From an uncultured Bacteroidales bacterium (lineage in GTDB: Bacteria; Bacteroidota; Bacteroidia; Bacteroidales; GCA-2748055), in NCBI GenBank assembly GCA_963809925.1, contig CAWELH010000005.1, forward strand, positions 87,196-151,195: a stretch of DNA of 64,000 nt. The letters run 5' to 3'. Shown piece by piece: positions 1-38,815 of the stretch. The notes below the pieces were generated by a model, which worked only from the letters and a program-made list of their open reading frames with translations, ran no database searches and was not told the origin of the DNA. How positions within the stretch are numbered: the first letter of the stretch is position 1; every line of letters starts with the position of its first letter. Made by a program: the position numbers and the translations under genes.

Positions 1-364
1 CGCGGCCTTCCGAAACTTCATTGACGAAGCCGGCTGGCACAGTCCCAAGGGTAATCAGGTCGTGCCTCCAATCATGGTTTCTGAAAAGTCTCAGTGGAAT
101 ATCCCCATACATCCTGCGTATCTCTTCGGAGGTCATCGGAAAGTGCGTTCCAGTGGCAGGAAGGATATCTGTCAGCCGGCTTCCGTAATAATCATAGACC
201 ATCCGGGTGATCTCGCCTGCCTGCGAATGAAAGCGTGTAAAATCGGGAGGGATGACAAGGATTTTTTTTCTGGGGCCTAATGCTTCCAGCACACCGAATA
301 CCGACTCCTCCAGTTCCCTGGTGCCAATGACTGTTTCTGTACCACCCTTTTTAAAAAATAACAT
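1..364 (-). CDS. LarA/lactate-racemase (DUF2088) family protein, probable sugar-acid 2-epimerase (GntE-like); 5' part only, runs off the window start
   Basis: Not in the ORF track. Manual translation from ATG at 364 gives MLFFKKGGTETVIGTRELEESVFGVLEALGPRKKILVIPPDFTRFHSQAG...ILPATGTHFPMT...FRNHDW, open to position 2. The D-x-T-R and ATGTH motifs are typical of the LarA N-terminal domain. Confidence 0.75.
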   Translation of the reverse strand, partial: MLFFKKGGTETVIGTRELEESVFGVLEALGPRKKILVIPPDFTRFHSQAGEITRMVYDYYGSRLTDILPATGTHFPMTSEEIRRMYGDIPLRLFRNHDWRHDLITLGTVPAGFVNEVSEGR

Positions 365-407
365 ATACTGTTGTATTAGAATACCACTTGGTCAGAATGA
401 TTGATGA

Positions 408-1292
408 TCATTTCCATGGAGGCAACTCGGGGAGATAGTTATCAAAAATGCGGATACGTTCATTCTCGTAGGAGCCCTGGTATGTACCGTCAAAAAATTT
501 GTCGAGTGCCTCCTTGTAAAACAGTTCCCAGGATGCTTCTTCATGTCCGGGATTGATTGGGTAAAACAGGACGCCGTTGGATTTCGCAGCTTTAAAATCA
601 CCGGGTGCATCACCGATCATCAGGATCATGTTATCAGGATATTTTCCTTTGGCAGCCAGTGCAAGGTGTTCCCGTTTAGTTCCATACTCCTGTCCGGCAA
701 TTAGCCTGACATATTTTTCGATCTTGTTTTCCTTCCATTCCCTTTCCAGGGCTTCAACAGGAGTTTGTGATACCACAAGGGCATCAGCCCTGTCTGCCAT
801 TTTTTCCAGGGAATCCTTCACAAAAGGGAATGGTGGCATTCCATAAACCATTTCACCGATATCCTGATTTACTTTTAACGACCAGGCATAGGTGCGATCG
901 ATGATGGGATCGTCCACTTCTTGTGCGAAAATCTCCAGTGCAGGATTCCCCAGCTTGCTCTCCTTTTTCGTCCATTCCTCCAAAAGGCTCAGGTCGGGGA
1001 GTTCCATGCCGCGAGCGGTAACCTCTGGTCTTTCAGAGAGCAGACGAAACGTTTCGATCAGGGCAAGAAAGCGATTCACTCCCCTTGTTTTAGAATAAAG
1101 ATTTACAAATTCCCAGGTTTCCCTGGCATATTTGGAAATTTTCTGTAGTTCAAATGTCTGGATGAGGTTAGGGCAAAAACATTCTTTTTGCTTTATCTCC
1201 ATGGTGTCAAAGGCACAACCATCAGAATCAATGCCGATAAAAAATTTTTTTTCCGGCTGAAGTTTTGTGAGTGTATCGTGAGGATTATTCAT
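408..1292 (-). CDS. HAD-superfamily hydrolase/phosphatase
   Basis: Motif I IGIDSDGC (DxD), motif II VVSQT, motif III Lys (GTK), motif IV MIGDAPGD. Confidence 0.85.
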   Translation of the reverse strand: MNNPHDTLTKLQPEKKFFIGIDSDGCAFDTMEIKQKECFCPNLIQTFELQKISKYARETWEFVNLYSKTRGVNRFLALIETFRLLSERPEVTARGMELPDLSLLEEWTKKESKLGNPALEIFAQEVDDPIIDRTYAWSLKVNQDIGEMVYGMPPFPFVKDSLEKMADRADALVVSQTPVEALEREWKENKIEKYVRLIAGQEYGTKREHLALAAKGKYPDNMILMIGDAPGDFKAAKSNGVLFYPINPGHEEASWELFYKEALDKFFDGTYQGSYENERIRIFDNYLPELPPWK

Positions 1293-1343
1293 ATTTTCAA
1301 AGGTTGATTTGTCTACGAATTCTTTTTTGACAGTTTTACTGTT

Positions 1344-2627
1344 CTACTTGTAAGCCTGTGGCTGGTAAGCGACAAGTTTTTTTTCTGCCAATATCATCCT
1401 GAACCGTGTAAACCGCTGCCTACCGTTAATGATGGGTACGCTAACCCAATCTTCGCCAACCAGCGGTCTAAGATAGCCGAGGAATTCATCTGTAACATCG
1501 GTACCCGAAGGTGCAATCCATTTTTTAGGGAATGTACGTTCCGACAACGCTACTTTTTCAAGGGGCACCTTATCGTAGGTAACATTGTAAATAAAACCGG
1601 GAACCCTGAGGATGGTAGCCATCCAGCCATTCCCTTCATTCATGGCAATATCCACAGCTTTCTGTCCAACCTTGTAAGCTTCATCAAGGTCAACGGTAGA
1701 TGCATAGATCATGGCATCTCTCTGATCTGTTCCCATTACCTGTCCCCGGGCTTTCCCCCTGACTCTGAATCCGGCCTTGTTCAGGTGATTCACCACCGAC
1801 TGAAAAACGGATTGTTCACTCGAACCGAAAGAGGTATGACCGAAGGCATCTTTCACTTCGCCTAAAGACCCCACATTAAATCCTTCACTCACAACAACAA
1901 TGCAACGGCCGTCGCGGCTTAGCTGATCATTTACGTTATCGGTCATTTGTTCAAGGGTAACATCCGATTCCGCAAGGTATATCTGCAGTGGAATTTCCCG
2001 CTTTGGATCAGCCAGTCTTGCGGCTGCAGGGATATAGCCGATCTTCCTTCCCATAGCCTGAAGTACGAGAACAGGATCAGCCGGTGAGGATCCCATGTTT
2101 TCTTCATTTGCATTCTGCACAATGTTGGACCAGTACCTGGCCACGCTGCCATATCCGGGAGTATGGTCAATCAGTTTAAACTCACTGTCTCCGACATCAT
2201 TATCAATGGTTTTTGGCACGCCGGTAGCAATGAGTTCGAGACCCTTTTCTTTCGCTATTCCTGCAACTTTATAAGCCGTATGCTGAGAATCGTTACCCCC
2301 GATATAAAAAAAGTAACCAATATCATGCGCTTTAAAAACTTCCATTATCCGTTTGAAATCCTCCTCCTGATGATCCTTTAGTTTATAACGGCATGTTCCG
2401 ATAGAACCAGCGGCTGGTGTGACCCTCAGTAGTGCGATTTCTTCATCATCCTGGGCAGTAAGGTCAAGCAGTTCTTCTTTCAGCACACCTTCTATTCCGT
2501 GCCATCCCGCATAAACCTTTCCAAATATTTCAGGAAACATCCTGCAGGTATCAATGATCCCCCTCAGTGAATTATTGATCACCGGACTCGGTCCTCCTGA
2601 TTGTGCAACAATAACATTTTTTGGCAT
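1344..2627 (-). CDS. pfp: PfkA-family phosphotransferase, pyrophosphate-dependent type (diphosphate--fructose-6-phosphate 1-phosphotransferase-like)
   Basis: QSGGPSPVIN, GGNDS (Asp = PPi-type), PKTIDND (Lys = PPi-type), MGR. ATG at 2627 (MPKNVIV) preferred over the upstream alternative start. Confidence 0.85.
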   Translation of the reverse strand: MPKNVIVAQSGGPSPVINNSLRGIIDTCRMFPEIFGKVYAGWHGIEGVLKEELLDLTAQDDEEIALLRVTPAAGSIGTCRYKLKDHQEEDFKRIMEVFKAHDIGYFFYIGGNDSQHTAYKVAGIAKEKGLELIATGVPKTIDNDVGDSEFKLIDHTPGYGSVARYWSNIVQNANEENMGSSPADPVLVLQAMGRKIGYIPAAARLADPKREIPLQIYLAESDVTLEQMTDNVNDQLSRDGRCIVVVSEGFNVGSLGEVKDAFGHTSFGSSEQSVFQSVVNHLNKAGFRVRGKARGQVMGTDQRDAMIYASTVDLDEAYKVGQKAVDIAMNEGNGWMATILRVPGFIYNVTYDKVPLEKVALSERTFPKKWIAPSGTDVTDEFLGYLRPLVGEDWVSVPIINGRQRFTRFRMILAEKKLVAYQPQAYK

Positions 2628-2884
2628 ACCTAATTCTGTTTTCTTATGATAAAACAATCGCTTTTTTGGCTGGTGTCAACATTTCTTCTTTTCCAATGTA
2701 TTGAAGGAGGCCGAAAACGCCGGTCATCTATTCAAGATGAAGAACCAGCTTCTCGCATCTGAGCCATATCCTTATAATTATTTTTTTACTAATTAATTAA
2801 CAAAAAAGTAGGAGGAAGATCATAAGATTTACGGTGAATAAACCGGTTTTCATTTTGATTGATTCTAATTATTCTCCTTTTTCC

Positions 2885-3733
2885 TCAAACACCTCCAAAG
2901 GCGCTGTATCCACCATCAACAGGGATCACAATACCTGTAACGAATTTTGAAATATCCGAGATTAGGTAAAGGACGGTACCCTGAAGATCTTCCGGTTCAC
3001 CAAATTTCCCGGTGGGCGTATTGGCAATGATCTTCTCTCCTCTTTTTGTTAATTTACCTGTATTTTCATCAATAAGTAAAAATCTGTTTTGATTGGTCAG
3101 GAAAAATCCCGGTGCAATTGCATTAACCCTGACACCTGTTTTTGCAAAGTGAACGGAAAGCCACTCGGTAAAATTATTTATGGATGCTTTGGCTGCCGAG
3201 TAGGCAGGGATTTTGGTCAGCGGCTTAAAAGAATTCATGGATGAAATGTTCAGTATCGCACCTTCGCCACGTTTAACCATTTCTTCGGCAAATACCATGG
3301 TGGGCAGCAAAGTTCCCATAAAATTCAGATCGAAAACCTTCCTGAAGCCTTCCAATTTCAATCCGAAAAATCCTTCATCCAGAGCAGATGTTGCTGAATC
3401 AATCTGCTCAATTTTTGTGGTAGCGTCTGGTGAATTGCCACCCGCACCATTGATTAAAATATCAATCTTCCCGAAGCGCTGAAGTATCACCTCTTTCGTT
3501 TTTGAAAGTATATCCTTGTCCAGAACATTTGATTCCAGTCCTACGCATTCGGTACCTGTCTCCCTGCCAATACTTTCAGCGAGTTCCTCGGCAACGGTTT
3601 TTCGTAAATCCAGGATGATGGTTTTAACACCCACAGATGCAAGTGCTTTTACAATGGCAGTGCCAATAACTCCGGCTCCGCCAGTAATGACGCACACTTT
3701 GTTTTTCAGATCAGAAAAAGAATTATTTCCCAT
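2885..3733 (-). CDS. uxuB: SDR oxidoreductase, D-mannonate oxidoreductase (fructuronate reductase)
   Basis: TGGAGVIG Rossmann motif, NGAGGN, PLTKIPAYSAAK catalytic YxxxK, terminal DGGYSAFGGV; uronate gene context. Confidence 0.85.
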   Translation of the reverse strand: MGNNSFSDLKNKVCVITGGAGVIGTAIVKALASVGVKTIILDLRKTVAEELAESIGRETGTECVGLESNVLDKDILSKTKEVILQRFGKIDILINGAGGNSPDATTKIEQIDSATSALDEGFFGLKLEGFRKVFDLNFMGTLLPTMVFAEEMVKRGEGAILNISSMNSFKPLTKIPAYSAAKASINNFTEWLSVHFAKTGVRVNAIAPGFFLTNQNRFLLIDENTGKLTKRGEKIIANTPTGKFGEPEDLQGTVLYLISDISKFVTGIVIPVDGGYSAFGGV

Positions 3734-3741
3734 GGTTAAAT

Positions 3742-4791
3742 TTATCGGTATTCGTAAAAATCAATATTTTCTCTTGTCAGAATATCGATGGGGATATACT
3801 GAACTTTTTGTACTTCCTTTTTCAGAATGATCATATTGAAAAGTGTCATAATGCCCCGGTAGCCCTGTTCTTCAGGTTTCTGACTGATCAGAAAATCCAC
3901 CAGCCCTTTCCGGAGGTAATCAACATTTTCAGGTAAGAGGTCGTAGCCGATCAGTCTGACATGATTCAGCCCGTGTTCTTCAAGATAGGCGGCCACCCTG
4001 TGAACTCTTGAGTTTGCAACAAATATTCCCTTCACCCTTGCTTTGCCAAAGTAGGAATCTAGTTTCTTTGAGAGCTCATCTCCGGTTGGCTGTCTCATCT
4101 CCACAGTGATCAGGTTAAAATTCAAAGCGGAATTATCACTGAAAAATTTACGGAACCCACGTTCCCTCCTGATGATATCATTATGATTCTCCTTTTTCCC
4201 GACAAGGCTGATAAGAAGAACGTCCCCATCTACAGGAATGCCGTAGGTAAGCAGCTTAGCGCCAAGGTATCCGCTCTGAAGGGCATTCTGGCCTATATAA
4301 CAAACCTTTACCAGCTCATCAATATTCGAATTAAATAGTGCAACCTGAATCCCGGCATTTGTACATTTATTGACAAAATCCATCGATTCAGCGGGAAAAA
4401 TCGGTGCAAAAAGTACCGCATCAGGTGCCTCATTTTGTACTGCCTCCGACTGTGCCAGGAAAGATTCCTTATCGAACTGGTCGAAATAAAAACGGCGGAT
4501 GATAATGCCAAAGGGATTTATCTCACTGCTGGCTCTGTCAATGCCGACGTTCGGCGCATGCCAGAAATCATTTCCGTTTACGGACACGGGCATAAGCACG
4601 GCAAACAACCATGTTTTTTTTGAAGCAAGTGTTCTTGCAAGTATATCAGGTTTATAATCAAGTTCTTGCAATATTTTATCCACTTTCTTCCTGGTCTTCT
4701 CCGACACCTCTCCACGATCATGAATTACACGGTCAACTGTTCCAGGGGAAACCTGGGCAAGCCTGGCGATATCTTTTATCCTAACCTTCAA
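3742..4791 (-). CDS. LacI-family transcriptional regulator of the hexuronate locus (UxuR/UxaR-like)
   Basis: N-terminal HTH RIKDIARLAQVSPGTVDRVIHDRG plus periplasmic-binding-type sugar domain; divergent from uxaE. Confidence 0.9.
   Translation of the reverse strand: MKVRIKDIARLAQVSPGTVDRVIHDRGEVSEKTRKKVDKILQELDYKPDILARTLASKKTWLFAVLMPVSVNGNDFWHAPNVGIDRASSEINPFGIIIRRFYFDQFDKESFLAQSEAVQNEAPDAVLFAPIFPAESMDFVNKCTNAGIQVALFNSNIDELVKVCYIGQNALQSGYLGAKLLTYGIPVDGDVLLISLVGKKENHNDIIRRERGFRKFFSDNSALNFNLITVEMRQPTGDELSKKLDSYFGKARVKGIFVANSRVHRVAAYLEEHGLNHVRLIGYDLLPENVDYLRKGLVDFLISQKPEEQGYRGIMTLFNMIILKKEVQKVQYIPIDILTRENIDFYEYR
4572..4588. promoter_or_regulatory. Putative auxiliary LacI operator inside the regulator coding sequence
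   Basis: TTCCGTTTACGGACACG matches the reverse complement of the main palindrome (TTCCGTGTACGGACACG, 4904-4920) at 16 of 17 positions. Confidence 0.55.
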
Positions 4792-4855
4792 TTATATAAC
4801 TGATTTTCTGTAATTTATTATATTTTACACGGTAAACACACAACGAATATTTCAG

Positions 4856-4863
4856 CAAAAATA
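4856..4863 (-). promoter_or_regulatory. Bacteroidota housekeeping-sigma -7 element for the LacI/uxuB transcript
   Basis: TATTTTTG on the minus strand fits TAnnTTTG and lies about 65 bp upstream of the LacI start. Confidence 0.45.
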
Positions 4864-4898
4864 ATGAATAATTTTTGGAAAAAACAAATTTTGATCTT

Positions 4899-4922
4899 AA
4901 TTTCGTGTCCGTACACGGAATT
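4899..4922. promoter_or_regulatory. LacI-type palindromic operator between the divergent lacI and uxaE genes
   Basis: AATTTCGTGTCCGTACACGGAATT: a CGTGT-n-CG-n-ACACG palindrome with the central CG typical of LacI-family sites. Confidence 0.75.
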
Positions 4923-5054
4923 TTATTTTACTTCAGCACACGTAAAAGCCTGATGTATATTTAGACAAGATTGGAAAACATTTGTTTAGATTATGTATCG
5001 GCATTTTCAGCATTGAAAAATCTTTAGAAATAAGAGCATATATTAAACAGTTAA

Positions 5055-6314
5055 ATGATGGACACAGTAAAGATCAGTAAGTATTCCTTCGGAACAGGCG
5101 ACCGGTTCGGACTTCAAGGAAGAGCACAACTTAGGGCCATCAGGATGGCCAATACAGCTGGCATTCCCCTGACGCCAGTATGGAACAAATCAAACCGGGA
5201 ACATCAGATCATTCATACCTCCCCGGAGGAAACAAGACTTGAAGCGGACCTCGCAGTGAAGGATGCAGGATGGGATGGGGATTATTTTGTCGATGCCGAT
5301 CATATCAACCTTTCCAATGTTGACATTTTCATTGACCATGCCGATTTTTTCACCATCGATGTTGCCGATTTTATTGGTAAAGCGGCTGAGGAGGTTGATG
5401 TCGAACACTTTGTAAAGAGAAATGCAAAATATACGGGCTCCCTCAGCATTCCAGGTTTACAGGAGCCATTTACTGTCACCTCAGACGATCTGAAAAGGAT
5501 AGCCGGGAAATTTTTATACGCGGTTCAGCAGGCTGCCCTCATTTACAGACACATTGAAGCAAAAAAAGGGAAAGGGAATTTTATCACAGAAGTGTCTATG
5601 GACGAAGTTGATCAACCTCAGACACCTGTAGAACTGTTCTTCATTCTGTCAGCTCTTGCTCAGGAGCAGGTTCCTGTTCAGACCATAGCTCCAAAATTTT
5701 CAGGACGATTTAACAAAGGTGTGGATTATGTTGGTGACATTGAGAAATTTGCGAACGAATTTGAGGCCGATATCCTTGTAATTAAAAAGGCTATCAGCGA
5801 ATTCAACCTTCCTGAAAACCTCAAGTTATCGGTACATTCAGGCAGTGACAAATTTTCTATTTATCCGGTGATGGGGCAACTGATCAAAAAACATGACGTC
5901 GGAATCCATGTGAAAACAGCAGGAACAACATGGCTTGAAGAAGTTATCGGTCTTGCTCTGGCAGGTGATGAAGCACTCAGCCTTGCAAAATCAATTTACA
6001 GGAAAGCATTCAGCCGTATGGATGAATTGTGCGGACCCTACGCAACGGTAATCGATATCGATCCGGGAAAGCTTCCGTTACCCGGGGAGGTTGATGGCTG
6101 GAGCGCAAAAAAGTTTACCGATACATTAAGGCATATCCCAGGACATCCTGATTATAATCCGGGTTTTCGGCAGCTGATTCATGTGGGCTACAAGGTAGCA
6201 GCAGAATACAGTAATGTATACCTGAATCTCGTCAGACTCCATGAGGATATCGTGGGAAAACAGGTGGAGGATAATATTTATGAACGGCATATCCGGCGGC
6301 TGTTCAATATATAA
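5055..6314 (+). CDS. uxaE: Tagaturonate/fructuronate epimerase
   Basis: SFGTGDRFG, VDADH, LSVHSGSDKFS and HVKTAGTTWLEE motifs of the UxaE family; next to uxaC. Confidence 0.9.
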   Translation: MMDTVKISKYSFGTGDRFGLQGRAQLRAIRMANTAGIPLTPVWNKSNREHQIIHTSPEETRLEADLAVKDAGWDGDYFVDADHINLSNVDIFIDHADFFTIDVADFIGKAAEEVDVEHFVKRNAKYTGSLSIPGLQEPFTVTSDDLKRIAGKFLYAVQQAALIYRHIEAKKGKGNFITEVSMDEVDQPQTPVELFFILSALAQEQVPVQTIAPKFSGRFNKGVDYVGDIEKFANEFEADILVIKKAISEFNLPENLKLSVHSGSDKFSIYPVMGQLIKKHDVGIHVKTAGTTWLEEVIGLALAGDEALSLAKSIYRKAFSRMDELCGPYATVIDIDPGKLPLPGEVDGWSAKKFTDTLRHIPGHPDYNPGFRQLIHVGYKVAAEYSNVYLNLVRLHEDIVGKQVEDNIYERHIRRLFNI

Positions 6315-6350
6315 ACCCATCAATCACAGAAATATCAATATTCAAAAGTC

Positions 6351-7751
6351 ATGAAAACATTTCTGGACGACAATTTTCTCCTGGATACTCCTGTGGCGGA
6401 GAAACTTTACCATGATCATGCCAGGGATCTTCCGATCATCGACTATCATTGCCACCTTCCCCCGAATGAAATCGCCGCGGGAAGAAAATTTGAGAACCTA
6501 ACCAAGATCTGGCTTGACGGTGATCATTATAAATGGCGGGCTATGAGGGCCAATGGCGTAGATGAAATCTACTGCACCGGGAATGCCCCGGACAGGGAAA
6601 AATTCCGAAAGTGGGCCGAAACGGTCCCCATGACCATCAGGAACCCCCTCTATCACTGGACACATCTTGAACTTAAGCGATATTTCGGCATCGACAAATT
6701 GCTCAACGCTGCCACAGCGGATAGCATTTATGATGAGGCTACTGAAAAACTGCAGTCAGATGATTTCAGCGTCAGGAACCTGTTACAAAAGATGAAAGTT
6801 GAAACGCTCTGTACAACAGATGATCCGGCTGACAGTCTGGAACATCATATTCGTCTGAGGGATGAGAAATTCAGGATAAGGGTTTTGCCTGCCTGGCGAC
6901 CTGACAAAGCCATGGCCGTCGAGGATCCCTTATCTTATAACAATTACCTGGATTCCTTATCCAGAGCCTCAGACATGACTATCACACATTTCGACGACCT
7001 CCTCAAAGCATTAACACAGCGGCAGGAATTTTTTCACGACCTGGGGTGCAAACTTTCTGACCATGGTCTAGAGACCTTCTATGCGGAGGACTTTACTGAA
7101 AAAGAAATCAAAAATATATTTGTTTCAATCCGTAAAGGAAAAAAGCCGGAGAACGCTGAGGTCCTGAAACTTAAATCGGCCCTGCTCCTTCATTTTGCGG
7201 AGATGGATTATGCAAAAAGCTGGACGCAGCAATTCCATATCGGTGCGATCAGGAATAATAATTTCGGGGCATACCGCACACTTGGCCCCGATAAAGGCTT
7301 TGACTCGATCGGCGATTATGAGATTGCCCGCCCTATGTCAAAATTCCTGGATACCCTGGCAAGCAAAAACAAGCTTACAAAGACTATCCTGTATAACCTA
7401 AATCCGCGAGACAATGAACTAATGGCCACGATGGCAGGAAACTTCAACGACGGAAGCATTCCCGGAAAAATGCAATACGGATCAGGGTGGTGGTTTCTTG
7501 ACCAGAAAGACGGGATTGAAAAACAACTGAATGCCCTGTCAAATATGGGCTTGTTGAGCCGTTTCGTGGGTATGCTCACCGACTCCCGCAGCTTCCTCTC
7601 CTACCCCCGGCATGAATATTTCAGACGGATACTTTGCAACCTTCTCGGCAATGATGTTGAAAAGGGCGAATTACCTGCCGATATGGACCTGCTGGGTGAT
7701 ATTGTGGAAGGGATCTGCTATTATAATGCGAAGGAGTATTTTGGGTTCTAG
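6351..7751 (+). CDS. uxaC: Uronate (glucuronate/galacturonate) isomerase
   Basis: IIDYHCHL, GDHYKWRAMR, GSGWWFLDQKDG, GMLTDSRSFLSYPRHEYFRR. Confidence 0.97.
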   Translation: MKTFLDDNFLLDTPVAEKLYHDHARDLPIIDYHCHLPPNEIAAGRKFENLTKIWLDGDHYKWRAMRANGVDEIYCTGNAPDREKFRKWAETVPMTIRNPLYHWTHLELKRYFGIDKLLNAATADSIYDEATEKLQSDDFSVRNLLQKMKVETLCTTDDPADSLEHHIRLRDEKFRIRVLPAWRPDKAMAVEDPLSYNNYLDSLSRASDMTITHFDDLLKALTQRQEFFHDLGCKLSDHGLETFYAEDFTEKEIKNIFVSIRKGKKPENAEVLKLKSALLLHFAEMDYAKSWTQQFHIGAIRNNNFGAYRTLGPDKGFDSIGDYEIARPMSKFLDTLASKNKLTKTILYNLNPRDNELMATMAGNFNDGSIPGKMQYGSGWWFLDQKDGIEKQLNALSNMGLLSRFVGMLTDSRSFLSYPRHEYFRRILCNLLGNDVEKGELPADMDLLGDIVEGICYYNAKEYFGF

Positions 7752-9172
7752 AGTTTGACCGTAAACGAAGAAAACGACTTCGGCTGCATGCCGATAACCA
7801 GGTAATGGTCGCCGATCTTTAGTTGTCGGGCTGTTTTTGTGAATTCGCGGTTAGCGATGATACCCGCAACCTCATTTCCCGGGTTCAGGAAGACCAGCAT
7901 GTCGTCGTAACCGTCGGGTGTTTTAAGCTTCACAGCGCCGGGTTTCACAACGTGAGAGAGCTGTTTAAAAAGATAATATTCGGGATTGTATTTAACGTGG
8001 CCAGTCTGACTGTCGACCGTGATCAGGCTGTTCTGTTTCCAGCCCCAGCGGCTTTTACCCGTCTCATCGAGCACCATATTCCAGTACATGTATGAACTCA
8101 CGCCATTCTCAAGGTAAAGCTTAATCAGTGACCATGTATATTCTGCGGCTTTCCAGTCGTTTGAACCGTCCCCGCATTCCGATTCGGTCTCCATCAGCTT
8201 CATGCCCGGATATTTTTCATGAACGCCTTGCACGGCTTGCTTTCCTGCCCATTGAAATCCCACACCTGCAATATAGGGCATCGCATTGTGGTTCATAAGG
8301 ATAGTATCCACATTTTCGACCCGTGGCCGTTCATAGGTACCATACCAGATCTCTGCATTTACCTGGTTCTCACTAAACGCAGGCCCGAGATACTCACCGA
8401 TAAAGGTTGCCTGGTCTGTTGCAGTCCAGATGCAGCTCGGGAATACCTGGCAGGAGTTTGGCTCATTCTGAACGTGGACTGCATACAGGTTGATACCCTC
8501 ATTCCTGTATGCCTTAACGAATTTTACAAAATACCTGGCATATGACTCAAGATATGGTTTTTCCATGATAAACTGTGTACACCCTTCCATGCCGGCACCT
8601 TCTGTGTCGAGATGGTTTATTTCTGAAGGTTTACATGCATAATGGCCATTTGTTTTCATCCATGAGGGCGGACACCAGGGTGATGCCCAGATTTTCAGTC
8701 CGGGATTGTAAACCATGGCAGCTTTGATGTAGGGTATCAGGGCCTGCCTGTCGCGTACAATACTAAAGTCCTGCAAATTGAAATCCCCGGCTGTTTCATC
8801 GAGCGAATACCAGTCGCGCGAATAGTCGTTGGCACCGATAGGCATCCGGCAGATGGTAAAATTGCAGCCTTCTTCCGAGAAAAAATCCTTCAAAATTGCC
8901 TCCCTGCTGCTGTCGGGAAGAAGATTCAGCGCATCCCAGCCTAATTCATTGAAGCAGGCGCCAAATCCATCTATAAGCTGTTGTCCGGCTTTGATATCAA
9001 TTGTCACAAGGGGTATCCCTTTATGTTCTTCCGGCATCACCGGATAAGATGCTTCAACCCAACGCTCATGGGGGTTGGTGCTTATAAAATTAAACTGAAT
9101 ACTTTTCTTTTCACATGAAGAAAGAATTCCGGCCACAAGCATCAGGTAAACCCACTTATTTTTTATGGTCAT
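7748..9172 (-). CDS. Glycoside hydrolase family 30 lipoprotein (beta-glycosidase/xylosidase-like)
   Basis: GFGACFNE, RMPIGANDYS, ASPWCPPSWMKTN, VQNEP (acid/base), METE (nucleophile), YWNMVLD. Lipobox ILSSC follows the ATG at 9172. Confidence 0.85.
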   Translation of the reverse strand: MTIKNKWVYLMLVAGILSSCEKKSIQFNFISTNPHERWVEASYPVMPEEHKGIPLVTIDIKAGQQLIDGFGACFNELGWDALNLLPDSSREAILKDFFSEEGCNFTICRMPIGANDYSRDWYSLDETAGDFNLQDFSIVRDRQALIPYIKAAMVYNPGLKIWASPWCPPSWMKTNGHYACKPSEINHLDTEGAGMEGCTQFIMEKPYLESYARYFVKFVKAYRNEGINLYAVHVQNEPNSCQVFPSCIWTATDQATFIGEYLGPAFSENQVNAEIWYGTYERPRVENVDTILMNHNAMPYIAGVGFQWAGKQAVQGVHEKYPGMKLMETESECGDGSNDWKAAEYTWSLIKLYLENGVSSYMYWNMVLDETGKSRWGWKQNSLITVDSQTGHVKYNPEYYLFKQLSHVVKPGAVKLKTPDGYDDMLVFLNPGNEVAGIIANREFTKTARQLKIGDHYLVIGMQPKSFSSFTVKL

Positions 9173-11402
9173 CGGCTGATAGTTTAAATGAAGCTTCCTG
9201 AACATCGTTTGAGTTCGTGCCGACAAAGACATTGAAATCACCTGCCTCGGCAACAAAATCCATCTTGTCATTGAAGAAGCGAAGATCGTCAGAGGTCAGT
9301 TCAAAGCTAACCTCCACACTTTCGCCCTTCCTGATCATGACTTTTTTGAATCCCTTCAATTCTTTGACCGGTCTTGTAACGCTCCCAACCAGATCGCGCA
9401 CGTACATCTGAACCACTTCTTCCCCGTCAAAGTCGCCGGTATTGGTAACCTTTACCGATATCGTCAGGGGCTCGCCAAAGCCAATTTCATTTTTACTGAG
9501 GGTAATCGCTGAATAAGCAAATGTGGTATAACTTAGCCCGTAGCCGAAAGGATAAAGCGGATCGTTCGGGATATCCAGGTACCTTGATGTAAAGAACTGA
9601 TCGTCTTCAAATGGTCTTCCTGTGTTTTTATGATTGTAATATACAGGAATCTGACCCACCGTGAGAGGGATACTGACTGGCAATTTCCCTGAAGGAACAT
9701 AGTCACCGAAGATGACATCAGCAATAGCATCACCGCCTTCAGTACCAAGAAACCATGTTTCGAGGATGGCAGGCATATTGTTTGCTGTCCATTCCATCGT
9801 TACCGGCCTTCCGTTCATAAGGACAACGACAACAGGTTTACCTGTTTTATGAATTTCCCTGATCAGGTCAACCTGTACACCGGGAATGTCAATGTAGGCT
9901 CTGGAATGCGCTTCACCGCTCATCATCCCGCCTTCCCCAACTGCAAGGATTACTACATCCGCACTGCGGGCGGCAGAAACGGCTTCGGCAAATCCTGTTT
10001 TTGAATCGCCAGTGATATCGCAGCCTTTGGCATAAATTACCTTTGCATCCGGAACCTTTTTCCCGATCCCGGTCAGGAGGCTTACTGCCTCTTCAGGTCG
10101 CCCCTTGGCACTCCAGTTGGAGAGGAGGTCGGCTTGTGAATCGCCCAGGGGTCCAATTACGGCAATGGTATGCGTCTTTTTTGAGAGCGGAAGTAATTTA
10201 TCCTCATTCTTAAGCAGAACAATAGATTTCCGGGCAATGTCCCTGGCATGATCAACATGTGCCGGAGCAAAAAGCATCTCCTTTTCCCTTTCCGGAGAGC
10301 AATAGCGGTAGGGATCGTCGAACAGTCCCAGTTTAAACTTGATCCGCAGGATTCTCCGCACGGCATCGTCGACCAGTTTTTCGTCCACAACCCCTGATTT
10401 CACGAGTCCAGGCAGGAAATCGAGGTATGATTTCGAACACATATCCATATCACTCCCGGCCTTGATAGCGATCTCAGCTGCACCTTCCCGGTCGGCCGCT
10501 ACCCCATGGTTCACCATTTCGCCAATGCTATTCCAGTCGGAGACTACGAATCCCTTGAATCCCCATTCACCCTTAAGTTTATCCCTTAGAATATACGCAT
10601 TGCCTGATGCAGGAATGCCGGCAATTTCATTGAACGAATTCATGAGCGTACCCACTCCTGCATCCACTGCTGCAAGGAAGGGTCTCAGGTAAATTTCATT
10701 CAGCGTGCGCTCCGACATATCGACTGTGTTGTAATCACGTCCTCCTTCAGCGGCACCATAGGCGGCATAATGTTTAGCGCAAGCCACAATGCTGTTGTTA
10801 TCCGATAGATTTTCACCCTGGAAACCTTCAACCCTTGCTTTTGCAACCATACTTCCAAAGAATGGATCCTCTCCGGCACCTTCCATGATCCTGCCCCACC
10901 GTGGGTCCCTGGCGATATCTACCATGGGTGCAAAGGTCCATTGCACACCCTGGGCTGAGGCCTCTATGGCTGCTATACGTGCCGATTCCCTGATGCCGGC
11001 CGTATCCCAGCTGGCAGCTTCTCCCAGAGGTATCGGGAAAATGGTTCGGTAACCATGGATCACGTCGAGTCCGAAAATCAAGGGAATACCAAGACGGGTA
11101 TCATTCACCGCAATCTCCTGTGCTTCCCTGGTTTTATCGGCGCCCACAAGATTCAGGATCGATCCGATCTTTCCGTTACGAAGATCTTTAAAGTCATCTC
11201 CCGTTCCAAGGACAGGTCCGGTAGCTTCCCCCCCGGTGCTGATCTGGTTCATCTGTCCCACCTTTTCCTCTAGTGTCATTTTTGCAAGAACGGAATCCAC
11301 TCTGCGTTCAATTTCCTGATCGGCTGACGATATTTCAGGGCCTCTGTTACAGGAAATAATGAGGGTCAATAACCCGGTTAAAAGTACATTCTTATTTATC
11401 AT
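9156..11402 (-). CDS. bglX: GH3 beta-glucosidase (BglX type), lipoprotein
   Basis: MTLEEKVGQM, DVIHG, ARDPRWGR, CAKHY, VVSDW (nucleophile), PLYPFGYGLSYT, C-terminal Fn3-like domain, lipobox IISC. Start at 11402 supported by the upstream promoter box. Confidence 0.93.
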   Translation of the reverse strand: MINKNVLLTGLLTLIISCNRGPEISSADQEIERRVDSVLAKMTLEEKVGQMNQISTGGEATGPVLGTGDDFKDLRNGKIGSILNLVGADKTREAQEIAVNDTRLGIPLIFGLDVIHGYRTIFPIPLGEAASWDTAGIRESARIAAIEASAQGVQWTFAPMVDIARDPRWGRIMEGAGEDPFFGSMVAKARVEGFQGENLSDNNSIVACAKHYAAYGAAEGGRDYNTVDMSERTLNEIYLRPFLAAVDAGVGTLMNSFNEIAGIPASGNAYILRDKLKGEWGFKGFVVSDWNSIGEMVNHGVAADREGAAEIAIKAGSDMDMCSKSYLDFLPGLVKSGVVDEKLVDDAVRRILRIKFKLGLFDDPYRYCSPEREKEMLFAPAHVDHARDIARKSIVLLKNEDKLLPLSKKTHTIAVIGPLGDSQADLLSNWSAKGRPEEAVSLLTGIGKKVPDAKVIYAKGCDITGDSKTGFAEAVSAARSADVVILAVGEGGMMSGEAHSRAYIDIPGVQVDLIREIHKTGKPVVVVLMNGRPVTMEWTANNMPAILETWFLGTEGGDAIADVIFGDYVPSGKLPVSIPLTVGQIPVYYNHKNTGRPFEDDQFFTSRYLDIPNDPLYPFGYGLSYTTFAYSAITLSKNEIGFGEPLTISVKVTNTGDFDGEEVVQMYVRDLVGSVTRPVKELKGFKKVMIRKGESVEVSFELTSDDLRFFNDKMDFVAEAGDFNVFVGTNSNDVQEASFKLSADDHKK

Positions 11403-11426
11403 GCTTCTGATTTTTTCTATTGCCGC

Positions 11427-11434
11427 CAAAGATA
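11427..11434 (-). promoter_or_regulatory. -7 promoter element for bglX-GH30
   Basis: TATCTTTG on the minus strand (TAnnTTTG), 25 bp upstream of ATG 11402. Confidence 0.55.
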
Positions 11435-11507
11435 GTAAAGCCGGTGGCTAAAATGAAACAATACTAGTTTACTCTTTTTAATTGTAATTTACGGTCAGTG
11501 TTGTGTA

Positions 11508-13946
11508 TTAACCCATTATAACTTCAACCTCATTTACAGTGTTTTCGGATTGGACCGGGATAATTCCTGATTTCAAAATTTTTCCATTCAGGGTTATCGA
11601 TTTAATGCCTTTGCTGACACCTCCGGGGTTTAAAACTTTGATATGGTAAACTGAACCTCGGAATTTCCTGGTAACGGTAAAACCTTTCCATTTACCGGGG
11701 ATACAAGGATCAATTTTCAGGCCGTCAAAAACAGGCTGAATGCCAAGAATATAACGACTAATCGCATAAAAATTCCAGGCTGCGGTACCCGTCAGCCATG
11801 AGTTTTTTGCTTCTCCGGGACGGTAAGCATCTTTACCGGCGATCATCTGTGAATATACGTATGGTTCTGTTTTATGAAGATCGCTAATCTCCTCGAGGTA
11901 AGAAGGCGCAATCTTGCTGTAGTATTCGAATGCCCTATTTCCGTTGCCAAGTATTGTCTCTGCGATCATGATCCATGGATTATTGTGGCAGAAGATCCCA
12001 GCATTCTCTTTATATCCGGGAGGATAGCTGGTGATCTCGCCCATCTCAATGTGATATCTGGTAAATGCCGGGTTGTTCAAAACGATGCCATATTCACAGT
12101 CGAGGTGTTTTTTGACTGAATCCATTGCTTTTTGTGCCCTTCCATCCTCTCTGCCAATACCGGCCATGACACAGAACCCCTGGGGTTCAATAAATATCTT
12201 GCCCTCCTCATTTTTTGAGGATCCGACAGGTTCACCAAAATGATTATAGGCACGCAGAAACCATTCTCCGTCCCATCCGGCTTCGTCAATGGCAAGCTTC
12301 ATCCTTGCAATCTGTTGTCGTGCTGAATCCGCTTCATCCATCAGCCCAAGCTTTTCACATAACGAAACATATTCCTCTCCATAGAATACGAACATCCCGG
12401 CGATCAATACCGATTCGGCCTTTCCCCCTTCCCTGTTCTCCGTTGTCTGGTAAGACTCATCAGGGTCATTGCTGAAACAGTTCAGATTCAGACAATCGTT
12501 CCAATCTGCACGTCCGATCAACGGCAACTGGTTTGATCCAAGGTTATCCACAACGTGGTTGAACGAACGCTTGAGATGCTCGAGCAAGGGAGCCGCAGTG
12601 GATTCATCATTATTAAAGGGCACGTTTTCGTCAAGAATGGAATAGTCGCCGGTTTCCCTGACATATGCAACGGTTGATCCGATAAGCCAGAGAGGATCGT
12701 CGTTAAAATTTCCGCCGATCTCGCTGTTTCCTTTTTTTGTGAGCGGCTGGTACTGATGCCAGGCTCCGCCGTCTTCAAGTTGCGTGGCCGCCAGATCGAG
12801 GATCCGTTCACGGGCTTTCGCCGGGATCTGATGAACAAAACCAAGCAAGTCCTGGTTGGAGTCCCTGAATCCCATCCCCCGGCCGATGCCGGATTCGAAG
12901 AAAGAAGCGCTTCGCGACATCTGAAAGGTGATCATGCATTGATAGGGATTCCATGTGTTGACCATCCGCATCAGTCTTTTATCCTCATGTACCAGCTGCC
13001 AGGTTGAAAGAATATCATCCCAGTACGACTTCAGATTATTGAATGCCATTTCGACCGCTTTAGCAGATCCATAATCCTTGATGATCTTTTCAGCATTTTC
13101 CTTATTGATCACTCCTTTCGATGCCCATTTCTTTTCCTCATCATTTTCAACATAACCCAAAACAAATACAAGATCGCGGCTTTCCCCTGGTTCGAGGGAA
13201 ATATCAAGACAATGTGATGCGATGGGTGACCAGCCATGAGCGATCGTATCTGAGGATTTGCCGGTAAATACTGAATCCGGACGTTCGAAGCCATTATACA
13301 TACCCATGAATGCATCCCTTTCGGTATCAAAACCCTGAACTGGTGCATTTACCGAATAAAATGCATAGTGATCACGCCGCTCCCTGTATTCCGTTTTATG
13401 ATAAATGACTGAACCTTTCACCTCAACCTCCCCGGTACTGAAATTCCGCTGAAAGTTCGTCATATCATCCTGAGCATTCCACAAACACCATTCGACGAAA
13501 GAAAAGAATTTAAAATCGCGGATCTTTCTTGTATTGTTGGTGAGACGCACCCTCTGTATTTCAGCATCTGTTCCCAGAGGAACCATATACAGCACCTCAC
13601 AGCTCAGACCATTGAGTTCGCTCCTGATTTTTGTGTAACTCAGTCCGTGTCTGCATTCGTAAAAGTCCAACCTGGTTTTCACCGGTTTCCAACCGGGCGA
13701 CCACATTACAAGGTCATTTTCGCGGATGTAGAAATATTTTCCACCGGAATCAACGGGGACATCATTGTACCTGTAGCGTGTTAGTCTCCGGAGCCTGGGA
13801 TCCTTGTAAAAGCTGTATCCCCCGGCCGTATTTGAAATAAGGGAATGAAAATGATCATTCCCCAGGTAATTGATCCAGGGGTAAGGGGTTTCGGGAGTGG
13901 TGATGACATACTCCCGGTTCTTGTCATCAAAATAACCGTATTTCAT
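11508..13946 (-). CDS. cbp: GH94 glycoside phosphorylase, cellobiose phosphorylase-like
   Basis: [27 protein letters not shown]-terminus, [20 protein letters not shown] (catalytic Asp), [22 protein letters not shown]; 812 aa. Confidence 0.92.
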
Positions 13947-22446: not shown

Positions 22447-22822
22447 CTGCCTGTTCCTTACTTCATTTCAACATTCCTGTTTTACTGTCTGTTGAGACAG
22501 CTAATTTACCAATAAGTTTAATAAAAACGAGAACTCGCAGAATTCAATTCCTCGATGTTAAACAATAATTATCTTGATCTGTTAGACTGACTTTCATTTA
22601 TCTTACAACTTATATTACTTTGCGGAAAACAGGAAGCGCTGTCTCCGGCCAAAGAAGCAATCCATTTGCAAACCATCATTAAATGTAATCTGGTAAGTGA
22701 ACACCCATGCCACAATACTGGAGCATTATACTTGGGCGCTATTTACGTTCAAATTACCATGTTTTGTAGCGTCTGAAATAAAAAATTATTCCATATCTCT
22801 TTACATATGGCATGAATTTTCA

Positions 22823-22843
22823 TACATTTGCGCAATCGATTGC
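22823..22843 (+). promoter_or_regulatory. -7 promoter box plus a perfect LacI-type operator for the kdu operon
   Basis: TACATTTG (22823-22830, TAnnTTTG) followed by the perfect palindrome GCAATCGATTGC (22832-22843), which ends 4 bp before ATG 22848. Confidence 0.75.
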
Positions 22844-22847
22844 ACCA

Positions 22848-23867
22848 ATGATCAAGGCAAACATAACCATACATGATATAGCCAGAATTCTCGAGGTATC
22901 ACCTTCAACGGTATCAAGAGCCCTGAACGACAATCCCAGGATAAGTCTGCCTACACGACGTGCAGTAAAGGAGCTGGCTCTTGAGAAAGGGTATCGTCCC
23001 AATAATATCGCAACGTCTCTGAGAAAAGGAACAAGCATGACCATTGGCGTTGTTATACCCAGGATAAACAGGTATTTTTTTTCATGCGTAATCAGCGGCA
23101 TGGAGGAGATCCTGAACGAGGCGGGCTATAACCTGATGATCTGCCAGACACTTGAAGATCAGCACAAGGAAATTGAAGGACTTCGAACGCTGATGAATAT
23201 GCGTGCTGATGCCCTGTTTATTTCCCTCGCTGCGGGGACACGCCATTCTTCATACATTAGTGAACTTGCAACGAGAGGTATGAATATTTACATGTTCGAC
23301 CGTGTTGATGAAACTCTCGGAGTCAGTAGTGTGAAACTCGATGATTACCATGGCGCTTTTGAAACCGTGAAACATATGGTCAGCCAGGGCTATAAAAACA
23401 TCGCCCATATGGCCGGGCCGACGAACCTTAATGTTTACCGCGACCGCAAACAGGGTTATCTCGAAGCTCTTGATGAGGCCGGCCTCGTGCAAAACCGTAA
23501 ATTTATTTTTCCGGATGTCCTCACCCGTGAAAAGTCCTACGAAATCGTTGTGGACCTTTTCCGGTCAGGCAACAGACCAGATGCCATCTTTGCTGCCAGT
23601 GACTTCCCTGCCCTGGGAGCCCTTCTCGCTGCCAGGGAGCTGGGACTCAAGGTGCCTGAAGATTTGGGTATTGCCGGTTTTGCCAATGAACCGTTCACGG
23701 AATTCGTCCAGCCCGGCCTGACAACAACAGATCAGAATCCGGAGGAAATGGGACGCAGAGTCGCATCAATGTTTCTGGAGAATATCGAAAATCCCGGAAT
23801 TAACCGGGAAACCATTAAACCGGAACTGGTAGTCCGGGGTTCAACGTTAAGAACACCTATAATATAA
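22848..23867 (+). CDS. LacI-family regulator of the kdu/TRAP operon (KdgR-like)
   Basis: TIHDIARILEVSPSTVSRALND HTH plus sugar-binding domain. Start moved to ATG 22848, after the operator. Confidence 0.9.
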   Translation: MIKANITIHDIARILEVSPSTVSRALNDNPRISLPTRRAVKELALEKGYRPNNIATSLRKGTSMTIGVVIPRINRYFFSCVISGMEEILNEAGYNLMICQTLEDQHKEIEGLRTLMNMRADALFISLAAGTRHSSYISELATRGMNIYMFDRVDETLGVSSVKLDDYHGAFETVKHMVSQGYKNIAHMAGPTNLNVYRDRKQGYLEALDEAGLVQNRKFIFPDVLTREKSYEIVVDLFRSGNRPDAIFAASDFPALGALLAARELGLKVPEDLGIAGFANEPFTEFVQPGLTTTDQNPEEMGRRVASMFLENIENPGINRETIKPELVVRGSTLRTPII

Positions 23868-23886
23868 ACATTAAATACATATCAAC

Positions 23887-24729: not shown

Positions 24730-24771
24730 CCGGAAATAAATGCAGAAATAGTAACCTTAATACACCATCCT

Positions 24772-25560: not shown

Positions 25561-25606
25561 CCGGCAGCATCTTAATACGAAACTTTCAACCTTTAAAATT
25601 AATAGT

Positions 25607-26881: not shown

Positions 26882-26934
26882 AATTCTTGCTTTCATTTTA
26901 ACTTTAACTATTTTCGAACAATATTTTAAAACTT

Positions 26935-27606: not shown

Positions 27607-27622
27607 CAAGGAGGAAAACATT

Positions 27623-28597: not shown

Positions 28598-28643
28598 GTT
28601 ACGATATCAATGACCGGAAAATATATAAACGCTGAATCATCAA

Positions 28644-29126: not shown

Positions 29127-29146
29127 CCCCAATCGAGTCACTGCTT

Positions 29147-35878: not shown

Positions 35879-35894
35879 ACTAACCAAAAGCAAC

Positions 35895-37379: not shown

Positions 37380-37384
37380 AAAAA

Positions 37385-38716: not shown

Positions 38717-38815
38717 CAGCCCTAAGCCAGGCAGTTCTACCTGCACGTGTGTAAAAAATGTATGCAGGCAGAATATCAAACCGGTAAATCATTACTACTG
38801 ACTAATACTATTCCA

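Follow-up and report, generated by a model that had tools for sequence, protein, structure and literature searches.

An operon of soil Bacteroidota with a probable route from plant uronic acids to 6-phosphogluconate through a nickel-dependent epimerase

The uronate operon and its proposed route

The window analysed here is a stretch of 64,000 nucleotides (nt) from the genome of an uncultured Bacteroidales bacterium (G000:C5:87196-151195), and the uronate genes at its start (bases 1-7751) belong to a soil Bacteroidota operon whose most likely function is to convert uronic acids of plants to 6-phosphogluconate via a nickel-dependent epimerase. In the proposed route, UxaC would isomerise galacturonate or glucuronate, UxaE would epimerise tagaturonate to fructuronate, and a short-chain dehydrogenase/reductase (SDR) would reduce fructuronate to D-mannonate. 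A nickel-pincer LarA homologue would invert C2 and a kinase would phosphorylate C6, in either order, to give 6-phosphogluconate, which Gnd would convert to ribulose-5-phosphate. The phosphorylation step would be supplied by a two-gene cassette, encoding a phosphofructokinase-like (PFK-like) protein and a HAD-family protein. The PFK-like protein would be a pyrophosphate (PPi)-dependent kinase acting on mannonate or gluconate, possibly on 2-keto-3-deoxygluconate (KDG), rather than on fructose-6-phosphate. The HAD protein would be its obligatory partner, our working guess being a phosphatase or phosphotransferase that acts on the phospho-sugar acid. The substrates, the phosphoryl donor and the order of the steps are what we infer from the genes and their context. 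We give a probability of roughly one half to the proposal that the cassette provides the C6 phosphorylation linking mannonate or gluconate to Gnd, the PFK-like protein being a sugar-acid kinase that depends on PPi and the HAD protein an accessory.

The minus-strand arm opens with a LacI-family regulator (3742-4791; PF00356 and Peripla_BP_4). It continues with an SDR-type fructuronate reductase / D-mannonate oxidoreductase (UxuB-like; 2885-3733; NF006132 383.7 bits, cut-off 281) and with the PFK-A-family protein with PPi-type motifs (open reading frame (ORF) 1344-2657, likely 1344-2627, 427 amino acids (aa); PF00365 120.3 bits, cut-off 30.9; NF010675 373.2 bits, cut-off 273). The HAD-IA type phosphoryl-transfer protein (408-1292; 294 aa, with a large Arg/Lys-rich cap) scores 22.6 bits on HAD_2, slightly under the cut-off of 23.8. 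The first 121 codons of the LarA-superfamily epimerase (2-364; Lar_N 25.9 bits; NF052594 129.7 bits, 1e-37) reach the window edge. Past base 1 follow the rest of the LarA gene, a gene for a PdxB-like 2-hydroxyacid dehydrogenase (L002 12946-14094, minus strand; 434.4 bits, cut-off 434) and, on the same strand, gnd, encoding the decarboxylating 6-phosphogluconate dehydrogenase (TIGR00873 767.9 bits, cut-off 426.7), and then an unrelated esterase-like gene.

The unit therefore reads lacI-SDR-PFK-like-HAD-LarA-PdxB-like-gnd and is divergent from the plus-strand pair uxaE-uxaC. UxaE, the tagaturonate/fructuronate epimerase, is a short form of 419 aa (5055-6314; PF16257 201.1 bits), and UxaC is the uronate isomerase (6351-7751; PF02614 689 bits; NF002794 640.7 bits). 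An earlier note on this DNA had named seven of these genes, uxaE-uxaC on one side and lacI, uxuB, pfk, HAD and LarA on the other, and each of them was confirmed at these positions. The probable start of the PFK-like protein is the ATG at 2627; its homologues open with MPKNV. The UxuB-like SDR is the sole copy of its subfamily in the genome, where the next tblastn matches are at most 32% identical, and uxaE is present in a single copy.

The LarA homologue and its nickel cofactor

The complete coding region of the LarA homologue crosses the window edge (L002 14099-15364, minus strand). Once the part lacking from the earlier note had been retrieved, the protein came to 421 aa, of which residues 11-416 score 653.2 bits on NF052594 (curated cut-off 500). 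In NCBIfam this model is named NPN_18, nickel-dependent putative hexonate epimerase. The only PDB sequence match is 4NAR, GntE2 of Thermotoga maritima (E 1.6e-39). Counted off the printed 4NAR alignment, D41, R44, H74, H151, K161, H177 and K280 align with GntE2 D38, R41, H73, H154, K164, H180 and K287. In LarA, the cofactor-binding residues R75, K184 and H200 and the catalytic residues D72, H108, H174 and K298 are given in the accessible text of PMC7583248, with R41, K164 and H180 as the GntE2 equivalents of the first three. Unlike GntE2, the homologue has V153 for S156 and N279 for G286 at substrate-loop positions.

A genome search for larB, larC and larE, on which the earlier note had made its idea depend, found all three, each above its curated cut-off. 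The genes larE, larC and larB are adjacent at C4:268681-271390 (LarB 306.4 bits, cut-off 175; LarC 227.8, cut-off 90; LarE 278, cut-off 150), and the LarA homologue of the operon is the sole Lar_N protein in the genome. Thus, the nickel-pincer (NPN) cofactor pathway serves this one enzyme. From its context, with the SDR upstream and Gnd downstream, the LarA homologue is a putative C2 epimerase of mannonate/gluconate or of their 6-phosphates. The epimerase bypass of the earlier note stands at the level of the pathway, as indicated by gnd after LarA, the larE-larC-larB genes, the single Lar_N protein and the conserved uxaC/uxaE context described below; at the level of enzyme activity it stays a prediction.

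The cofactor genes can also lie close to the enzymes. One metagenome contig (L184 3417-9789) carries, in one cluster, a larE-like gene, larC and larB, followed by uxaE, HAD and a LarA homologue of a second subfamily.

Replacement of a PfkB kinase

The operon's kinase position can be compared with that of its relatives. In a phylum sample of 401 genomes, NPN_18 was above cut-off in 25 and split across contigs in one more, and the second LarA subfamily was present in 16. The PFK-like gene was found in seven genomes, together with HAD in 7/7. As sister loci we took the NPN_18 loci of 20 genomes without the PFK-like gene. An ORF of 358-362 aa sits between SDR and LarA in 16 of these 20 loci, and all six of the slot ORFs scanned with Pfam are PfkB-family carbohydrate kinases. 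The slot kinases form three subfamilies, 30-45% identical to each other. The cassette replaces them position for position.

The reverse comparison used 80 loci from species-representative genomes, which are the best matches to the query and hence one orthologue group, not the PFK family. None of the 80 has a slot-type PfkB kinase closer than 10 kb to its PFK-like gene. The slot-kinase profile (A4) was furthermore run on 35 entries representing 33 distinct genomes (G402 equals G277 and G418 equals G325), namely 23 carriers of the PFK-like gene and ten controls. Only one carrier (G407) has a slot kinase of at least 490 bits, and 22 of the 23 are without one. Sixteen carriers, this genome included, have no A4 match at E<=1e-10. 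In the other six a PfkB scores lower, at 255-341 bits; three of these PfkB genes adjoin eda and probably encode the true KdgK. KDPG (2-keto-3-deoxy-6-phosphogluconate) aldolase is present in 22/23 carriers. The cut-off of gluconokinase TIGR01313 was reached in none of the 33 distinct genomes. All 23 carriers have three to nine PFK-family matches, so the operon copy is never the sole PFK and at least two others are always present. The earlier note had placed the PFK and HAD where a sugar-acid kinase would be expected; PfkB in that place in 16/20 sister operons, and its absence from 22/23 carrier genomes, strengthen this view.

One carrier has a KdgK-like gene beside eda that contains an in-frame TGA and is possibly a pseudogene (G165:C35:125886-126929).

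Conservation and architecture of the cassette

The 80 loci span Bacteroidales, Cytophagales, Chitinophaga, Cyclobacteriaceae, Roseivirgaceae, Melioribacteraceae, Ignavibacteria, Rhodothermaceae and one metagenome-assembled genome of Fibrobacterota. Counting only the loci with enough flank, HAD lies directly 3' of the PFK-like gene in 73/74, with a median gap of 38 nt (70 loci). The LarA homologue is downstream of the PFK-like gene in 65/71 loci and Gnd in 57/62, while the SDR is upstream in 62/70. UxaC or UxaE is found within 10 kb in 31 of the 40 fully flanked loci. The trio of PFK, HAD and LarA, whose neighbourhoods the earlier note had wanted surveyed, is thus conserved together with uronate genes.

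Other architectures place the same cassette in different routes. In two Melioribacteraceae (L068, L070) the order is GH88-lacI-GH28-BT3233 family-uxaC-uxaE-eda-uxuA-PFK-like-HAD-TRAP-kduI-kduD (GH, glycoside hydrolase family; TRAP, tripartite ATP-independent periplasmic transporter), without LarA, gnd or a PfkB kinase. Judged by its genes, this is the classical KDG pathway, with the cassette as its only kinase candidate. Two further loci (L048, L054) read GFO/IDH/MocA dehydrogenase-PFK-like-HAD-gnd, without LarA, and one genome (G344) has HAD-second LarA subfamily-gnd-PFK-like. All cassette architectures have in common that a hexonate or KDG must be phosphorylated, and these acids share the C4-C6 end.

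Sugar-acid genes elsewhere in the genome

The genome is 97% complete, and its other sugar-acid genes show which routes are available. The earlier note had seen neither uxuA nor altronate enzymes nor a gluconate kinase in the window. This was confirmed: UxuA, of the canonical type, lies on contig 4, adjoining an unrelated SDR, and neither altronate dehydratase (PF04295) nor the AAA-type gluconokinase (TIGR01313) has a match genome-wide. As altronate dehydratase was not found, tagaturonate must go via UxaE. The operon holds no gluconokinase of either FGGY or AAA type. The five FGGY kinases of the genome are GlpK, two XylB-like kinases, a rhamnulokinase-like one and a ribulokinase; their best score on gntK_FGGY is 273.9, against a cut-off of 648.55. 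We considered the second XylB-like kinase as a hidden gluconokinase, which is unlikely since it adjoins an aldolase-like gene and a DeoR regulator (neighbours named by eye).

A second uronate operon, lacI-kduI-kduD-DUF4861-eda-dctPQM (TRAP), lies in the window on the plus strand (22812-30601; Pfam, tblastn) and serves unsaturated uronates. It makes and cleaves KDG/KDPG and encodes no KDG kinase. A KdgK-type kinase was not found in the genome by profile A4, which gave no match at E<=1e-10, nor did the PfkB slot kinases give any match as tblastn queries at E<=1e-3. A canonical uxuA route, which the earlier note had named as a competing explanation of growth on uronates, is therefore partly present: UxuA and Eda are encoded, and no KdgK-type kinase was found.

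The genome has two copies of gnd and five PFK-family genes, that is four besides the operon copy, including a classical PfkA at 437 bits. Two adjoining PFK-family paralogues of 406 and 403 aa (G000:C3:296800-299444) both score under the equivalog cut-offs, and one of them is nearest the Thermotogales PPi-PFK model. The pair is possibly a two-subunit or duplicated PPi-PFK.

The PFK-like protein

For the residue map, the PFK-like protein was aligned with Escherichia coli PfkA and the genome's other PFKs. In E. coli numbering, we take D127, R171, R72, T125, D129 and E222 to be the catalytic residues, and R162, R243, H249 and R252 to be the ligands of the 6-phosphate. The signature of a PPi donor, known from the mutagenesis literature, is Asp for Gly104 and Lys for Gly124. 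The PFK-like protein keeps R72, T125, D127, D129, M169, G170, R171, E222, R243 and R252. It shows the PPi-type changes G104 to D and G124 to K, and Asn replaces Asp103. It also changes R162 to P, H249 to T and I250 to D, the first two being phosphate ligands of fructose-6-phosphate, so that two of the four are lost.

The motifs GGNDS, PKTIDND and ARGQVMGTDQR were confirmed in the protein, as the earlier note had read them, and are unchanged in 120/120 close homologues. In the homologue search, 7999 of the 8000 scored candidates were at E<=1e-20; none of the best 120 falls under 81% identity, and the named ones among them are called PPi-PFK or 6-PFK. The nearest solved structures are 3K2Q (E 1e-72) and 3HNO (E 8e-69). 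A wider clade survey gave 510 cluster representatives at E<=1e-30, of which 90 full-length ones were inspected. GGNDS and PKT(I/V)DND are common among these 90, most of which carry the Asp 104/Lys 124 donor signature, and the acceptor segment is highly variable. The donor-type motifs are hence a trait of the clade and not specific to the orthologue group, and GGNDS and PKTIDND, by which the earlier note had recognised a PPi-type enzyme, are shared by a large and diverse clade and do not set this protein apart. Diversification within the clade appears to centre on the acceptor pocket, a pattern that would be compatible with an altered acceptor without proving one.

The HAD protein

Across 43 HAD sequences, D22, D24, S175, K206, D228 and D232 are invariant and constitute the phosphoryl-transfer motifs I-IV; the cap residues K34, R70 and R74 are invariant as well. 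The protein fits the pattern of HAD phosphotransferases, with a Rossmannoid core and a C1 cap, and its AlphaFold model has a confidence (pLDDT) of 95.7. Used as a Foldseek query, it retrieved only generic HAD-IA phosphatases, beta-phosphoglucomutase and a pyrophosphatase, with TM-scores of at most 0.5. A sequence search of the PDB gave nothing meaningful, the ESM Atlas gave 'HAD family hydrolase' clusters only, and the source names of homologues were 'HAD family hydrolase' or 'phosphoglycolate phosphatase-like' only.

The HAD family was found fused with Gnd (P0243, 14 member sequences), with a mannitol-dehydrogenase-family reductase (P0283) and with GH88 (P0279). In P0284, the C-terminal half of a PFK domain is joined to about 45% of HAD. 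The fusion partner in Firmicutes is a phosphatase of the Cof type (P0244-P0278). Gene-calling artefacts may account for some of the fusions.

The distribution of HAD is broader than that of its partner. It occurs in 14 of the 401 sampled genomes, seven with and seven without the PFK-like gene. In G097 (locus L121) it follows the PfkB kinase of the operon; in two sampled genomes it lies beside a major facilitator superfamily transporter and eda-galT-galK, and in four beside a xylose-isomerase-like TIM-barrel gene, an IlvD/Edd dehydratase and GntP. Starting from a Firmicutes fusion, a scan of metagenomes gave 80 HAD loci, many of them short, whose neighbours, named by local BLAST, were Gnd in 24, the LarA homologue in 22, the SDR in 18, UxaE in 16 and the PFK-like protein in 12. 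The module types include SDR-HAD-LarA-gnd (L180), SDR-HAD-LarA (L199), DeoR | HAD-LarA-gnd (L163, L200) and HAD-gnd-GFO/IDH/MocA (L202). The dependence is one-sided: the PFK-like gene comes with HAD, and HAD is often found without the PFK-like gene. The view in the earlier note of a dedicated phosphatase tied to the PFK was thus too narrow, as HAD is more widespread and some of its modules have no neighbouring kinase. From these modules, HAD may itself take part in phosphoryl transfer.

In Firmicutes, the Cof-HAD fusions (L141, L143, L144, L146, L150) follow a regulator in which LacI is fused to a substrate-binding protein (SBP). Four of these five loci lie beside an ABC importer, whereas L146 has TctC/TctA genes; NagA/NagB-like genes are additional neighbours in L143 and L144. 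A uronate context had been looked for, and the LacI-SBP, ABC importer and NagA/NagB-like neighbours form a different one, from which no more follows than that some members of the wider HAD family are probably phosphatases.

Alternative explanations

Several observations weigh against the proposed sugar-acid kinase. The PFK-like protein passes the cut-off of the PPi-PFK subfamily model NF010675 and keeps the MGR motif, E222, R243 and R252, and its acceptor could possibly be fructose-6-phosphate or sedoheptulose-7-phosphate. Other PFKs of the genome (N162 in L006; Y249 in L005 and L006) and the wider clade likewise vary at positions 162 and 249. Proteins from different phyla are about 80% identical, a level more usual for an enzyme of central metabolism. 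A self-sufficient kinase should need no HAD, yet HAD accompanies the PFK-like gene in nearly all loci. HAD is also found in modules without a recognisable kinase within about 5 kb (L163, L200, L180, L199, L173, L215), and half of the HAD-bearing sampled genomes lack the PFK-like gene. As to the PfkB displacement, the 10/10 controls without the PFK-like gene score 570-613 bits by construction, the profile having been built from their operons, and related genomes are non-independent observations. Furthermore, three PfkB kinases without an assigned role in this genome would be able to do the job.

With these points in mind, the PFK-like protein might be an ordinary reversible PPi-PFK that acts on fructose-6-phosphate, and perhaps on sedoheptulose-7-phosphate, and that is co-regulated with the operon for pentose-phosphate products or gluconeogenesis. 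The sugar-acid kinase would then be encoded elsewhere, for example by one of the unassigned PfkB genes, and HAD would be a sugar-phosphate phosphatase or a pyrophosphatase. We regard this as unlikely, even though the NF010675 score (373 bits against 273), the names PPi-PFK or 6-PFK on every homologue that has a source name, the retained catalytic residues with R243 and R252, and the very high conservation across phyla all agree with it. A transketolase gene follows gnd in one related locus (L026) and in four sister operons (L112-L114, L117), and sedoheptulose-7-phosphate is a known second acceptor according to the accessible text of a PFK review (PMC12203962); the four sister operons themselves lack the PFK-like gene. 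What speaks against an ordinary PPi-PFK is the position of the gene, which is that of PfkB in 16/20 sister operons, in carriers that nearly all (22/23) miss the slot kinase and that all (23/23) have at least two other PFK genes. The uxuA-eda operon of L068/L070, moreover, yields pyruvate and triose phosphate, with no PFK required. Finally, an ORF at C10:95786-96808 was read by eye as a transaldolase, with no family search; a bypass of transaldolase by phosphorylation of sedoheptulose-7-phosphate would thus be unneeded here, and we have downgraded that role for the PFK-like protein on this weak ground.

The one-sided dependence on HAD invites a different division of labour, in which HAD would phosphorylate the sugar acid through an aspartyl-phosphate and the PFK-like protein would recharge the donor with PPi, for example by making fructose-1,6-bisphosphate from fructose-6-phosphate; housekeeping metabolism would give the donor where the PFK-like gene is absent. 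The two enzymes together would form an ATP-free PPi:hexonate phosphotransferase relay, HAD standing in for the kinase. Precedents for such chemistry are the ThrH phosphoserine:homoserine phosphotransferase, beta-phosphoglucomutase primed by bisphosphates, and cytosolic 5'-nucleotidase II. The asymmetry itself (the PFK-like gene with HAD in 73/74 loci and 7/7 genomes, HAD alone in 7/14 genomes), the modules without a recognisable kinase (L180, L199, L163, L200, L202), the fusions to Gnd, to the reductase and to the C-terminal half of PFK, the invariant phosphoryl-transfer motifs with cap K34, R70 and R74, and the retention of most fructose-6-phosphate ligands in the PFK-like protein would all fit. 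Still, we hold such a relay to be quite improbable: 15 of the 20 sister loci have a PfkB kinase and no HAD, so HAD is dispensable given a kinase, and HAD and PfkB occur together in L121, L158 and L205. Where no kinase was recognised, the contig is in many cases short and the kinase may sit elsewhere, the Firmicutes Cof-type fusions beside an ABC importer and NagA/NagB-like genes suggest plain phosphatase chemistry, and the phosphoryl donor is only hypothetical. More doubtful still is a kinase acting one step earlier, on the C1 hydroxyl of fructuronate (or tagaturonate), after which the SDR and LarA would handle 6-phospho-5-keto-mannonate, 6-phosphomannonate and 6-phosphogluconate. PFK chemistry is the phosphorylation of the C1 hydroxyl of a 2-ketose furanose with a distal anion, and fructuronate closely resembles fructose-6-phosphate, with a carboxylate for the phosphomethyl group. 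The loss of R162 (to P) and H249 (to T), with R243 and R252 kept, fits a smaller anion, and extracts of Lactobacillus suebicus epimerise 6-phosphomannonate and not mannonate, according to the available text of PMC6978723. Set against this are the L048/L054 architecture, which has no obvious source of fructuronate, and the UxuA of L068, which would need a phosphorylated substrate and yet scores as a canonical mannonate dehydratase (571.7 bits). In addition, none of the three PfkB subfamilies that fill the slot has anything indicating a keto-uronate activity.

Comparison with known systems and significance

A PPi-dependent sugar-acid kinase would add a variant to routes that are known in outline. 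The galacturonate route of T. maritima was reportedly proposed by Rodionova et al. in 2012. Its operon reads gnd-uxaR-uxaE-uxaD-gntE-gntK (PMC3750489, available text), and GntE2, or LarAH20, is a D-gluconate/D-mannonate 2-epimerase (PMC7583248, available text). As in T. maritima, one regulon here unites UxaE with a fructuronate reductase, a C2 epimerase of the LarA superfamily and Gnd, and the end product 6-phosphogluconate would enter the pentose-phosphate pathway. Unlike T. maritima, the operon has a PFK-A-family protein and HAD at the kinase position and no GntK, its epimerase belongs to the NPN_18 subfamily, which the T. maritima control genome matches only under cut-off, and its regulator is of the LacI type instead of the GntR type.

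The second parallel is the hybrid isomerase/phosphoketolase pathway of L. suebicus (Valk et al. 2020, PMC6978723). As far as the available text of that study goes, it likewise leads from uronate over mannonate to 6-phosphogluconate, bypasses UxuA/KdgK/Eda and is redox-neutral to ribulose-5-phosphate. The order shown in its extracts is a mannonate kinase followed by a 6-phosphomannonate 2-epimerase, whereas the order here is not fixed. Its kinase candidates are FGGY gluconokinase homologues, the structural genes being left open in that text, whereas the candidate here has another fold.

Closest are the sister Bacteroidota operons (L112-L129), with the same SDR, LarA subfamily (59-70% identical), Gnd, gene order and uxaC/uxaE/kduI/kduD/eda flanks. 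They have a single ATP-type PfkB kinase where this operon has the PFK-like protein and HAD, and only one of the 16 (L121) has HAD too. With the PRK14072-type PPi-PFKs 3K2Q and 3HNO, both structural-genomics entries, the PFK-like protein shares the fold, the length, PKT(I/V)DND, MGR, Asp 104 and Lys 124. It differs from 3K2Q at positions 103 (N against G), 162 (P against K), 243 (R against H), 249 (T against Y) and 250 (D against L), and has a five-residue insert after TIDND that 3K2Q lacks. Its genomic context is sugar-acid catabolism and not glycolysis.

The route is therefore known in outline and the epimerase family has already been named by NCBI, while the PFK-like/HAD kinase module is undescribed in the literature searched. 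No report of a PFK-family or HAD gene in a route from uronate to 6-phosphogluconate was found there, subscription journals and supplements lying outside the search, and the words 'gluconate' and 'uronate' are absent from the accessible text of the 2025 PFK review (PMC12203962). New are the counted displacement of PfkB, the absence of the kinase in carriers, the uxuA-eda and GFO architectures, the residue map, and HAD as the more constant partner.

Uronate-rich polymers such as pectin are a major carbon source in soils, sediments and guts, and a redox-neutral route from uronate to ribulose-5-phosphate is wanted for engineering. The module offers a defined and widely conserved gene set for the conversion of mannonate to 6-phosphogluconate, the step left open in the 2020 L. 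suebicus study. If the PFK-like protein is a PPi-dependent sugar-acid kinase, it would represent a new acceptor class for the PFK-A fold, and thousands of entries named diphosphate--fructose-6-phosphate 1-phosphotransferase would be mis-named. If HAD carries out the transfer, this would be a rarer type of kinase replacement. Either way, the module would supply the missing step to those genome-scale models of Bacteroidales, Ignavibacteria and Melioribacteraceae in which KdgK or GntK is lacking.

Intergenic regions and other genes of the window

The divergent lacI/uxaE intergenic region contains a perfect palindrome of 19 nt, TTCGTGTCCGTACACGGAA (4902-4920), a candidate LacI operator. Palindromes of the CCGTGTnnnnACACGA type occur in 18 of the 20 equivalent intergenic regions of related loci, a recurrence that fits a single LacI regulon over both arms. 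The gap between the SDR and PFK-like genes (2658-2884) is unusually long, at about 230-260 nt, and AT-rich, being far shorter in most related loci; it contains an imperfect 27-nt palindrome at 2769-2816. An Rfam scan of bases 1-9500 gave a single sub-threshold match at chance level, and promoter- and terminator-like sites showed no excess over shuffled expectation.

The PdxB-like gene between the LarA homologue and gnd is the genome's sole PdxB-type gene. It may be the housekeeping pdxB, or its product may be a dehydrogenase that acts on a phospho-2-hydroxy acid within the pathway. A PdxB-like gene holds that position in 19/62 PFK-like loci and in 6/20 sister loci.

Adjoining uxaC on the minus strand (7748-13946) are genes for a GH30 (7748-9271), a GH3 beta-glucosidase-like ORF of 757 aa (9156-11429, named by eye) and a GH94 (11508-13946), a set that suggests beta-glucan rather than pectin. 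Further along, a probable xylose cluster on the plus strand (35144-40417) comprises an NrtR/Nudix-type regulator, an XylB-like FGGY kinase with 288 bits, under the XylB cut-off, an ORF of 443 aa without a Pfam match at 1e-6, and a sugar transporter. A radical SAM / SPASM protein whose C-terminus carries a SEC-C motif is encoded on the minus strand (33293-34639), on its own between a histidine kinase and this cluster.

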